Below, piece by piece: positions 4,195-6,595 of a stretch of 64,000 nucleotides of DNA. The stretch is from IMG/VR virus record IMGVR_UViG_3300034062_006900, positions 1-64,000 of that record. One strand, 5' to 3'. The DNA is from a virus. The notes under the pieces are model-generated. The model was not told the origin of the DNA, did not search any database, and saw nothing but the letters and a program-made list of their open reading frames with translations. Numbering within the stretch: the first letter of the stretch is position 1; every line of letters starts with the position of its first letter. A program made the translations under genes and the position numbers.

Positions 4195-4479
4195 ATGGAA
4201 AAAGATTTGGACATATTAGAAACAATCCTCAGGGACCAAAATTACGCAACAGAATACATTGCAATGATTTTACAACACTTGGTTAAGGAATTAGGACAAT
4301 CCTCACTTGAGAGATTTACCCCGAATTTTATTTACTCAGCATTAGCATTTGAACTTGGAAGAGCTAAATCAAAGGAGATTGCAGAATATTTCGAGGAGTT
4401 CAAAGAAAAAGGTAGTTACAGAACAACTCTTCAAAAAGCAATGGAAGATTCTCCATCATTTTCGAAATACACAAAATAA
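4195..4479 (+). CDS. hypothetical protein
   Basis: ORF with TATTTAT at 4181-4187. Confidence 0.65.
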   Translation: MEKDLDILETILRDQNYATEYIAMILQHLVKELGQSSLERFTPNFIYSALAFELGRAKSKEIAEYFEEFKEKGSYRTTLQKAMEDSPSFSKYTK

Positions 4480-4510
4480 AAAACCCCATCCGTAGAAACG
4501 AACAGGGTTT
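4479..4510 (-). terminator. terminator of the large ncRNA
   Basis: Minus strand AAACCCTGTTCG-TTTCTA-CGGATGGGGTTT followed by a T tract. Confidence 0.65.
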
Positions 4511-4518
4511 GGCAAAAT

Positions 4519-5326
4519 AGGTTGAGAATACACCATCTTGTGAGAGTCTTTACAGGAGATTATTTGTTTCCTCCGATTTCCACTTCCTTTTGAGAAGTAA
4601 CTCCCAGTCACGGTCAATTAGATTAACCAATCCTTAAGTCGTAATATACTCTATTTTTACTCATCACTCTTCTAGGTTGCCACCCAAACTCATCCTTGCG
4701 GGATTAGAGAACTTCCAAAACAATCGTATCGGGCTTGGGACCCTTTACGGCCATGAACAACTCATGACTAAGTAGTGACCTGTCTACCACGACTGACGAA
4801 CACTTTTCCTTTTAGTTTTAATGATTTGTTAGAATCCTTATTTTAACAAAGGGTTTGATTTGTGGATGTTAGATGTAGCGGTTCGTCAACGCAGCCATCC
4901 CATCTTTTGAACGAGACGATACTGAACTACACCTTGAAGTCTCCCGACCTCCATACTTTGAGTTTACTTCATAACTGACCACTTGGTAGAGGTCTGATAA
5001 GGAGAACAACAGCACCATCTGTTTGAACTCTTACCTTTCGGTTTTAAGTCTACTCTAATATTGAACTCCGCAATTGTATAGTTGGATGACCATACTTCTC
5101 ACAACAGCTCTACGAGTTATTCTTATTGGTGTTCCCACCTCAACCAAACGACCCACATCGCTCGGTCACCCAACCACTTTCTCTACAGTGTCACCCTCAA
5201 TACTCAAGGTTAGATGATATCCCGCTTGTCTACTCGAGCTCCGTTACCGAAGCCGCAACCGTTCCAATCAAGAACAAGTCACTTTATACTACTTTCATAG
5301 TTTATTTATGGACTATAGACCGCCCA
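4519..5326 (-). ncRNA. large (~810 nt) structured ncRNA, GOLLD-like
   Basis: No credible ORF; GC above flanks; many GNRA-capped stems on minus strand (ACC-GAAA-GGT, ATCCC-GCAA-GGAT, GAGGTC-GGGA-GACTTC, CTTCG-GTAA-CGGAG), two CAAAAG-loop hairpins, G-U pairs favour minus strand; next to a tRNA, with own promoter and terminator. Family assignment rests on size, context and recalled motifs only. Confidence 0.65.
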
Positions 5327-5489
5327 ATATCTTTATCAGTCATTTCAAACTCAACCCGAAGGTCTCATCTTCAACTCCTGAACGGATAATATTTTTATTC
5401 AAAGAACTTTAAAATTAATGAAGAAAAGAGGAAACTTTACGACCCACCGAAGTAGGAACCTTTACTACCCCTTTTCTTCATTTGTCTTA

Positions 5490-5521
5490 CAAAATTAAGA
5501 ATGTTTTGGGAAACAGTCAAA
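5490..5521 (-). promoter_or_regulatory. Bacteroidota-type promoter P3 (drives large ncRNA)
   Basis: TTTG-N20-TAATTTTG followed by ACAAATG leader. Confidence 0.75.
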
Positions 5522-5646
5522 TTTTTGTAGAACTTTTTTTTTGAAGAACAATACAACAAATAATTCTACGGACCCCCTACTCTTAATAGGACAGGTTTAT
5601 TTGGTTATTCATTCAAAGAACTAAACGACTCTCGTCATTTGTTTTT

Positions 5647-5678
5647 CAAAGATAGGATGAATTTTTCAATTCGTCAAA
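5647..5678 (-). promoter_or_regulatory. Bacteroidota-type promoter P2
   Basis: TTTG-N20-TATCTTTG followed by ACAAATG leader. Confidence 0.75.
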
Positions 5679-5736
5679 TCTTTTTTAAAAAAAATAGGGA
5701 ACCTCGATTTTACGACCGCAGTCAACCTATTCTTAG

Positions 5737-5808
5737 TTGCGAAGGATGGATTCGAACCACCGACCTAAAGGTTATGAGCCTTCCGAGCTACCACTGCTCT
5801 ACCTCGCG
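5737..5808 (-). tRNA. tRNA-Met(CAT), initiator-like
   Basis: CGCGAGGTAGAGCAGTGGTAGCTCGGAAGGCTCATAACCTTTAGGTCGGTGGTTCGAATCCATCCTTCGCAA; cloverleaf, GTTCGAATC T-loop, C1:A72 mismatch; CCA not encoded. Confidence 0.92.
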
Positions 5809-5971
5809 ATATATCTTTATGATTACAAACCCACTTCCCCACGGTCACCTATCCACGTCATGCGCTGGTTGAACCAGCGGGTGTAATCAATATTTTTAAG
5901 AACTTATTTAGAAAATAAGTCCCACAAGCTTATGAATCTCTCGATAAAACACTTGTGGGACATTTGTTTCA

Positions 5972-6003
5972 CAAAGATAAGTAGAATTTTTGGTTCAGTC
6001 AAA
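5972..6003 (-). promoter_or_regulatory. Bacteroidota-type promoter P1 (drives tRNA)
   Basis: TTTG-N20-TATCTTTG followed by ACAAATG leader. Confidence 0.75.
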
Positions 6004-6083
6004 TCTTTTTTGAAACTTTTGGGTTTGGGGATATTCTGTCTTCTCAGACAGAGACATATAAATATCTACATATTTACCAAAAG

Positions 6084-6179
6084 TCATTCATCATCCAAAT
6101 TATCTATTTGTCTGTTCATATCAAGAACAGCCAAAACAACAAAGAGGAATAATATTACTACTACAAAACCTAAAATCAT
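6084..6179 (-). CDS. small single-TM protein (31 aa)
   Basis: Manual translation MILGFVVVILFLFVVLAVLDMNRQIDNLDDE; ATGA overlap with Nudix stop. Confidence 0.5.
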   Translation of the reverse strand: MILGFVVVILFLFVVLAVLDMNRQIDNLDDE

Positions 6180-6595
6180 TTTAATATAATTTCTGCAAGT
6201 TTAAAAAGATATTCACCCGAAGTTTCTTCCTTAATCTCTTCGATTGGAAAATATTTGGCGTCGGTATGTTCTTCACCATCAATCGCGTTAACCAAGTCAG
6301 GCATAATCTCATCATCAACATTTAGAAGATAAACATACATTAAACCTTTAACCTTTTTACCATCTCTTGTATGACGAGGAATTAACCCAACAAATTGGAG
6401 TTCTTGGTCATCGATGTTAATTGCGGTTTCTTCAAAGAATTCTCTTCGAGCACCCTCTTGAGTAGTTTCTCCATCCTCAAGTTTACCGCCAGGTATGGAC
6501 CACATTCCAGGGAATGAACCCAAGTTATTTCTCTTACATAGAAGAAGTTTGTTTTTACATTTTACGGCTACGCCAACGTATCTTTTTTTATCCAT
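6176..6595 (-). CDS. Nudix hydrolase
   Basis: Nudix box GGKLEDGETTQEGARREFFEETAI. Confidence 0.92.
   Translation of the reverse strand: MDKKRYVGVAVKCKNKLLLCKRNNLGSFPGMWSIPGGKLEDGETTQEGARREFFEETAINIDDQELQFVGLIPRHTRDGKKVKGLMYVYLLNVDDEIMPDLVNAIDGEEHTDAKYFPIEEIKEETSGEYLFKLAEIILK

Follow-up and report, generated by a model that had tools for sequence, protein, structure and literature searches.

A probable rRNA-style cassette for the giant phage RNA GOLLD, with promoters and boxA leaders of Bacteroidia type

How does a phage produce an untranslated RNA of some 810 nt? GOLLD is among the largest and most elaborate non-coding RNAs of bacteria and phages, and the structure of its cage has been solved. 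We address this question for a GOLLD locus in the first 64 kb (called the window hereafter) of the 76.7-kb IMG/VR virus record IMGVR_UViG_3300034062_006900, which at an estimated completeness of 26% represents a fragment of a large phage. Between a small membrane-protein open reading frame (ORF; end ~6084) and a convergent gene (end ~4479) lies a 1.6-kb stretch without credible ORF, whose elements are all read on the minus strand. In that direction they follow each other as promoter P1, a hairpin, box 1, a conserved element, the word ATAAAGATAT, tRNA-Met, a hairpin with a U8 run, P2, a mini-hairpin, box 2, a small hairpin, P3, a long hairpin, box 3, a spacer hairpin, a second ATAAAGATAT, GOLLD and a terminator; those elements that a first-pass annotation of the bare sequence had listed are all found at the given positions. 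That annotation had proposed an expression cassette for stable RNAs modelled on the ribosomal RNA (rRNA) operons, rrn, of the host. The proposal is supported by an 11-nt boxA core shared with the host, conservation of the box in 69/73 lineages, the A-rich tract of the promoters and the abundance of GOLLD. We consider it likely that the locus serves a freshwater jumbo phage of Bacteroidia as a gene-free cassette for stable RNAs, equipped with promoters and boxA leaders of the host's rrn type, and the sequence comparisons suggest that the rRNA transcription machinery of the host, which resists termination, makes tRNA-Met and GOLLD.

Promoters, boxes and their counterparts in host rrn operons

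The GOLLD RNA occupies 4519-5325, with a conserved 5' domain starting at GGGCGGTCTATAGTCC (5325) and the Rfam 3' domain at 4934-4519. With the GOLLD covariance model (RF02032) it reaches 320.6 bits, the gathering score being 150, and covers the model in full; in nhmmer it matches its relatives over ~800 nt. An Rfam E-value search of 4400-6100 returned otherwise only sub-threshold noise (Hatchet with 22 bits and E = 0.16, the L10 leader with 25 bits, and others).

The three tandem promoters of the first-pass annotation were found by pattern matching at 5972-6003 (P1), 5647-5678 (P2) and 5490-5521 (P3), each reading TTTGAC...TA(T/A)(C/T)TTTG with a 20-nt spacer. They are of the Bacteroidota type, P1 showing a -33 TTTG, the -7 element TATCTTTG and an A-rich tract upstream, and alignment shows that these -33 and -7 elements are kept in 10 relatives, with varying flanks. 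The pattern TTTG-N19-21-TAnnTTTG has 11 matches in the window, 10 of them on the gene strand, against 2.3 expected, and none of 100 shuffles reached 11. The same TTTG/TAnnTTTG motif precedes 16S in the Bacteroidia genomes sampled. Upstream of the -33 element, in tracts such as AAAAAAGATTTG, the fraction of A amounts to 0.56 in the cassette and 0.55 in host rrn, compared with 0.41 for other phage promoters (p = 4e-5). None of the other 8 promoters in the window is followed by a box. Promoter and subsequent ACAAATG form a 55-nt unit present in three copies of 64-80% identity. While ACAAATG thus occurs in all three units as claimed, it does not hold as a signal specific to the cassette, since ACAA(A) also follows other promoters of the same phage and represents its usual initial transcribed sequence, whereas host rrn transcripts begin with CAGCCCC. 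The TATTTAT singled out at 6058-6064 proved to be an ordinary AT-rich word, with 38 copies in the window against 27 expected.

Behind each promoter, the announced AGTTCTT(T/A)(G/A)AA box is present, at 5904-5894, 5622-5612 and 5408-5398. Box 1 (5894-5904, from pattern match and alignment) reads AGTTCTTAAAA and is the weakest boxA variant of the three; relatives carry GCTCTTTAA or GTTCTTTAA at the aligned position. Box 2 (5612-5622) and the GOLLD-proximal box 3 (5398-5408), both identified by pattern match and logo, read AGTTCTTTGAA, the consensus boxA, and box 3 continues into TAAAAATATT as in host rrn leaders. The degenerate word AGTTCTTWRAA has three copies in the 64 kb, all of them in the cassette, with 0.58 expected and 2 of 100 shuffles reaching three. 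Lying 25-82 nt behind consensus promoters, without credible ORF and with the box seen in an RNA contig, the boxes occupy the position of a transcribed, untranslated leader.

A hairpin had been claimed after each promoter as well; those of P1 and P3 are strong, that of P2 is weak. The P1 leader folds into CCCACAAG...CTTGTGGG (5919-5961; minimum free energy (MFE) -21.5 kcal/mol, z -4.46) with a stem kept in relatives. The long P3 leader hairpin (5417-5482; MFE -26.8 kcal/mol, z -4.34) has an inner stem that covaries among relatives from CCTAC/GTGGG to CCAAG/CTTGG. The P2 mini-hairpin ACGA-GAG-TCGT (5623-5640) is small and not significant by itself (z -1.26).

In bacterial rrn operons, NusB-NusE bind to boxA of the nascent transcript, and boxA is both essential and sufficient for nucleation of the antitermination complex (PMC13753749). 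This complex blocks Rho and suppresses pausing, and at the exit channel it forms a ring with RNA-chaperone function (PMC13753749, PMC8632103). The first-pass annotation had proposed a comparison of the boxes with rrn leaders of Flavobacteriia; we made such a comparison on 30 16S genes with their flanks from Bacteroidia genomes, reached via an unrelated locus. The word [ACT]GTTCTTTGAA lies 83-141 nt upstream of the 27F site in 25 of the 30 rrn operons, and many operons have a further TTTG/TAnnTTTG promoter upstream that is followed by a box of its own. A related word, GTTCTTTGACATATTG, was found in the 16S-23S spacer of 24/27 operons, and 44 kb of 16S contain no copy. Occurrence in the leader as well as in the spacer classically marks rrn boxA, by which the host word, judged from its placement, is a boxA. 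The boxA consensus is UGCUCUUUAACA in E. coli and AUGAUCUUUGAAA in B. subtilis, where it stands just after a small 5' hairpin and binds NusB (PMC13753749), and the Bacteroidia word fits both. The same 11-nt core is found in the phage: the logos of its proximal box, [AC]GTTCTTTGAA, and of the host leader box are identical over 11 nt including the preference for A or C at -1, and a 3' extension AAAATAT(T) after the box is likewise common to host and window (GTTCTTTGAATAAAAATATT). Promoter-to-box distances are bimodal in both, with 16-33 and 59-85 nt in phages and 7-28 and 44-82 nt in hosts, while whether the box is unpaired in the MFE fold (0.47 in phages, 0.42 in hosts) was uninformative. NusB (PF01029) is encoded in 60/61 Bacteroidia genomes. 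The NusB-domain open frames in this genome set (G001-G064) are mostly ~315 aa long compared with the 133 positions of the Pfam domain, and Bacteroidia NusB seems to carry a long N-terminal extension. The 16-mer GGGCGGYYTATAGTCC, with which genome contigs were scanned, served only as a handle to reach the Bacteroidia genomes; as a GOLLD finder it was rejected, giving mostly chance matches in high-GC genomes and four Bacteroidota matches without GOLLD.

A lack of conservation in related phages had been named in the first-pass annotation as a refutation, and nearly all sampled lineages keep the box. A first sample of GOLLD loci was obtained by scanning IMG/VR with a GOLLD 5' motif and dereplicating the matches, whereby 12 of 41 clusters turned out by nhmmer to be chance matches in coding DNA and were removed. 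In 28 of the 29 remaining lineages, GTTCTTT[GA]A lies ≤150 nt upstream of GOLLD, a density of 4.7 per kb compared with 0.033 per kb in the background. A second sample came from an independent scan with a 3'-domain pattern, yielding 78 usable loci that were all new and none of which has the strict 5' motif; here the box stands at the GOLLD 5' edge in 41/44 lineages, with 0.022 expected. Taken together, the box is kept at this edge in 69/73 dereplicated phage lineages at a chance expectation of about 0.005-0.02 per site. Its distance to the conserved GOLLD start GGGCGG ranges from 16 to 112 nt, and the box is therefore a separate module rather than part of the GOLLD fold. The order promoter-box-tRNA-Met-promoter-(box)-promoter-box-GOLLD recurs in most lineages. 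In four lineages, the 635-kb phage LR745206 among them, tRNA-Met and GOLLD are separated by a box but by no promoter, an arrangement that resembles a spacer boxA.

The stretch was detected in lake-water DNA runs and in six river or freshwater metatranscriptomes. Our RNA evidence consists of contigs from four metatranscriptome runs of four studies, which give neither RNA ends nor levels. In all four, GOLLD (4521-5361) is covered, with summed depths between 10^2 and 10^4, and one run (X19) further has contigs on the tRNA, on the region from P2 to P3 (5478-5692) and on the P3 leader (5372-5505). In one contig from a relative (depth 485), a AGTTCTTTGAC box directly adjoins GOLLD, and this box is therefore transcribed. 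In 3/4 runs no contig reaches the leader past ~5371, and contig ends fall near 5334, 5362 and 5378; neither these gaps nor these ends locate a 5' end or a processing site. The flanking coding stretches 4300-4500 and 5908-6300 have no contig in any of the four runs. For GOLLD-like RNA, contig depths run from the thousands into the tens of thousands in river and freshwater metatranscriptomes (four studies), which places it with the abundant RNAs of the communities sampled.

Putting these elements together, each of the three promoters would be used by the host sigma-A polymerase and start a short untranslated leader carrying the host's rrn boxA word (A/C)GUUCUUUGAA, usually behind a hairpin. On emerging from RNA polymerase, the box would be bound by host NusB-NusE(S10) and nucleate antitermination of rrn type, in a complex that also contains NusA, NusG and probably SuhB and S4. 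Such a complex would render the polymerase fast and Rho-resistant on untranslated RNA and may chaperone co-transcriptional folding, so that tRNA-Met, the small hairpin RNA and the ~810-nt GOLLD would be completed at rRNA-like rates, with the leaders probably trimmed afterwards. Nus binding, the positions of the transcription start sites, Rho resistance and leader removal are what we infer from the likeness to rrn. An untranslated RNA of 800 nt is an obvious target of Rho, which gives a box placed directly before GOLLD a plausible function. More speculatively, the boxA-loaded complex might act as a folding chaperone for assembly of the GOLLD 14-mer cage and the two to three boxes might in addition divert NusB/NusE from the host's rrn operons, a combined role to which we give little weight.

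Objections and competing explanations

Several observations weigh against an rrn-type leader. The Bacteroidia host is itself deduced only from the type of the promoters and the identity of the box. Taken alone, the 9-mer GYTCTTTRA is common enough in the genome to arise by chance, with 11 copies against 7 for the reversed control; the case therefore rests on position and on conservation and comparison, not on word counts. Outside the cassette, only one other sense-strand copy of the 9-mer was found, inside an ORF. Box 1 (GTTCTTAAA) deviates from the consensus. The well-assembled GOLLD locus of the uncultured huge phage LR756502 (L003) lacks the box and is the sole exception of the first sample. 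A clade of GC 0.23-0.25 (L286, L290, L309, L351, L354) likewise has no GTTCTTTRA box at the GOLLD 5' edge, and may use a different host group or a different signal. A hairpin before the box with z < -1.5 is not general: 48% of the phage lineages have one, compared with 24% among host leaders and 12% among controls. Finally, no NusB or NusG domain was found in the 76.7-kb phage record, which at 26% completeness says little.

The most serious competitor, unlikely as we judge it, is that the boxes and the AU-rich AAAGATAT flanks serve the processing or the structure of a precursor, be it as endonuclease site, as partners in a leader-trailer pairing or as guide for RNase P, instead of being sites at which Nus factors load. 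It draws on a genuine pattern. As the first-pass annotation had observed, ATAAAGATAT directly precedes both mature RNAs, once at 5811-5820, 2 nt before the 5' end of the tRNA (5808), and once at 5327-5336, 1 nt before GGGCGG, and both junctions have a U at -1. The window contains 4 copies of the word against 0.59 expected; in 11 close relatives AAGATAT is kept before both RNAs, and A[AG]ATA[TA] is found ≤12 nt from GGGCGG in 16/29 lineages compared with a background of 4%. Beyond the close relatives, the pattern dissolves. The exact 10-mer is confined to that clade. A loose AnATAT(T) flank is shared more widely, though it stands before both RNAs in only 6/21 lineages, and A[AG]ATA[TA] precedes tRNA-Met in only 9/21, from which ATAAAGATAT is best described, as far as alignments tell, as a lineage-specific form of a loose AU-rich flank. 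Where the box adjoins GOLLD, this flank is the box's own 3' extension (GTTCTTTGAATTAAAGATATT running into GGGCGG) and resembles the host's GTTCTTTGAAAATAT, and in the window the flank gives the impression of a junction duplicated around an inserted spacer hairpin. A processing signal also fails to account for the presence of the same box upstream of 16S and 23S in hosts without GOLLD, the variable distance between box and GOLLD agrees poorly with it, and the GOLLD 3' end in the window contains no complement of the box with which a leader could pair.

The first-pass annotation had gone further in suggesting that the 5' end of GOLLD is matured like that of a tRNA, and this part was not borne out. 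The only tRNA that ARAGORN and Rfam detect is that at 5736-5808, with nothing tRNA-like at 5325, the exact 10-mer is limited to one clade, and RNA contigs with a depth like that of the GOLLD body cross the proposed cut at 5326 up to ~5361. We thus regard a maturation signal of tRNA type shared by both RNAs as improbable. As a separate observation, ATAAAGATAT is the reverse complement of the near-consensus -7 element TATCTTTAT (5811-5822 versus 5969-5979). In a transcript that reads through, the word could base-pair with the -7 region transcribed from the promoter that follows, although AT-rich composition may suffice to explain the match.

Less probable still is a box that is bound by a factor of the phage, N-, Q- or LoaP/NusG-like, in a phage-specific antitermination for which the likeness to host boxA would be partial mimicry. 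Such a factor could be encoded in the rest of the genome, only 26% of which is in hand, but the 76.7-kb record is devoid of NusG and NusB domains, the box equals the host word over 11 nt down to the A/C preference at -1, and the order of hairpin and then box is that of rrn and not of lambda nut.

We find it very improbable that the boxes are mainly a decoy which soaks up NusB/NusE and starves host rrn of antitermination, thereby contributing to host shut-off rather than to GOLLD synthesis. Two to three boxes per cassette and very high transcript levels would suit a decoy; a cis role is favoured by the one box that always stands directly before GOLLD, including the promoterless box of spacer type, and the leader is represented by far fewer and shallower RNA contigs than the GOLLD body. 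That the leaders are functionless relics of recombination with host rrn operons, as the host-like promoter, A-tract and box might suggest, is hardly tenable, given that the box is kept in 69/73 lineages while leader sequence, spacing and hairpins diverge, and that the initial transcribed sequence is the phage-type ACAA and not the host-type CAGCCCC.

Relation to known systems

An rrn-type antitermination leader remains our preferred reading, and its closest counterpart are the bacterial rrn operons, in which tandem promoters P1 and P2 precede a boxB-boxA-boxC leader served by NusA/B/E/G, SuhB and S4. The cassette likewise has tandem strong host promoters followed by a hairpin, strong in two of the three leaders, and then boxA, and its boxA word is identical to that of Bacteroidia rrn. 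A further box stands directly before the large RNA, sometimes after the tRNA, and the tandem promoters of the host also each have a box of their own. The products are in both cases untranslated, highly structured and very abundant, with a tRNA co-transcribed. The cassette differs in being phage-encoded, in its cargo of GOLLD and tRNA-Met and in its initial sequence of phage type; moreover, no boxC has been defined and no leader-trailer helix was found.

Phage lambda also makes use of boxA, in nutL and nutR, where boxA is followed by boxB and acts with N and the Nus factors. Its short boxA variant is CGCUCUUA, followed by an A-rich spacer. Box 1 (GUUCUUAAAAAU) resembles this variant, whereas the consensus boxes are of rrn strength. 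Short boxA variants of lambda type bind NusB-NusE ~10-fold more weakly than rrn boxA (PMC2800207). The cassette has the reverse order of hairpin and then box and no known boxB of nut type, and no N-like factor was identified in the 26% of the genome available, which together place it outside the N/nut systems.

For phage T7, Savalia et al. 2010, as cited in PMC3709561, describe a functional boxA behind the tandem early host-polymerase promoters A0-A3. To the extent of that account, T7 provides a second case of an rrn-type boxA behind stacked strong host promoters that has no need for an N protein, but its boxA serves a translated early messenger RNA in E. coli, whereas the cassette serves untranslated stable RNAs with one box per promoter. 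Beyond rrn, boxA is further found upstream of CRISPR arrays, where it shields the long untranslated transcript from Rho, and upstream of suhB, where it represses rather than antiterminates (PMC5725501; PMC13753749). Unlike the phage cassette, these examples are chromosomal and gammaproteobacterial.

GOLLD itself has been described as a 14-mer nanocage, and GOLLD env-38, whose structure was determined by cryo-electron microscopy, is also located downstream of a tRNA-Met gene (10.1101/2024.12.08.627333). The RNA of our cassette, a full-scoring GOLLD adjoining tRNA-Met, resembles env-38 in this respect. Published accounts of the family cover its structure and gene neighbourhood, and a promoter, leader or boxA is not described in the literature searched, in which we also found no paper linking GOLLD and boxA. 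A blastn search of an isolate and GenBank phage collection gave only two GOLLD relatives, both from uncultured huge phages, and no cultured system. While the boxA mechanism is known, its cargo of GOLLD and tRNA-Met in phages of Bacteroidia and the definition of the Bacteroidia boxA appear to be unpublished in the literature searched.

Synthesis by the rRNA machinery would fit the very high abundance of GOLLD in freshwater metatranscriptomes, and would offer a handle for expressing or perturbing this RNA through boxA mutants, NusB or inhibition of Rho. It would also extend boxA and Nus biology to stable-RNA operons of phages, in a phylum in which few studies have addressed it. The analysis also yields a definition of the rrn boxA of Bacteroidia, with GTTCTTTGAA as the leader form and GTTCTTTGACATATTG as the spacer form.

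Further features of the cassette

Between box 1 and the tRNA, a 14-lineage alignment revealed a conserved element of ~65 nt (5822-5888). Its ~45-nt core ACCCGCTGGTWCAACCAGCGCATGACGTGGATAGGTGAC (5840-5885, minus strand) is near-invariant in these 14 diverged lineages, more so than the tRNA; no covarying pairs were found in the alignment and no Rfam family matches it. The subsequent tRNA-Met (CAT; 5736-5808), detected by ARAGORN and with 62.5 bits by the Rfam tRNA model, has a C1/A72 mismatch atop the acceptor stem as initiator tRNAs do, yet only two G-C pairs beside the anticodon loop. It is followed by a terminator-like hairpin with a U8 run (5685-5734; MFE -13.2 kcal/mol, z -2.66) that is missing or shortened in some relatives.

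The only apparent product of the P2-box unit is a small conserved hairpin RNA (5570-5595, minus strand), for which relatives show a compensatory change from CCTA/TAGG to CCCA/TGGG. Downstream of box 3, an optional spacer hairpin (5328-5388; z -2.91) separates the box from GOLLD, and it is missing in lineages whose box lies 16-23 nt from GGGCGG. The cassette ends with an intrinsic terminator composed of a 13-bp stem and a T-run (4471-4510, the narrower span being 4481-4510; z -3.5).

The module GGNNGTAAAGNNTCC occurs three times in the window against 0.02 expected (5455-5469, 5430-5444 and 4738-4752, minus strand). Two copies are placed symmetrically in the P3 leader hairpin and one lies in the GOLLD 3' domain, a layout common to the relatives, and the related sequence GGTCGTAAAATCGAGGTTCC is found in the hairpin after the tRNA. 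The 635-kb uncultured phage LR745206.1 (L002) carries an exact repeat of ~100 nt (1337-1435 and 2527-2625) on both sides of GOLLD, a tRNA-like gene with a long insert, and ARAGORN reports several 'tRNA-???' genes near GOLLD in L002 and other loci.

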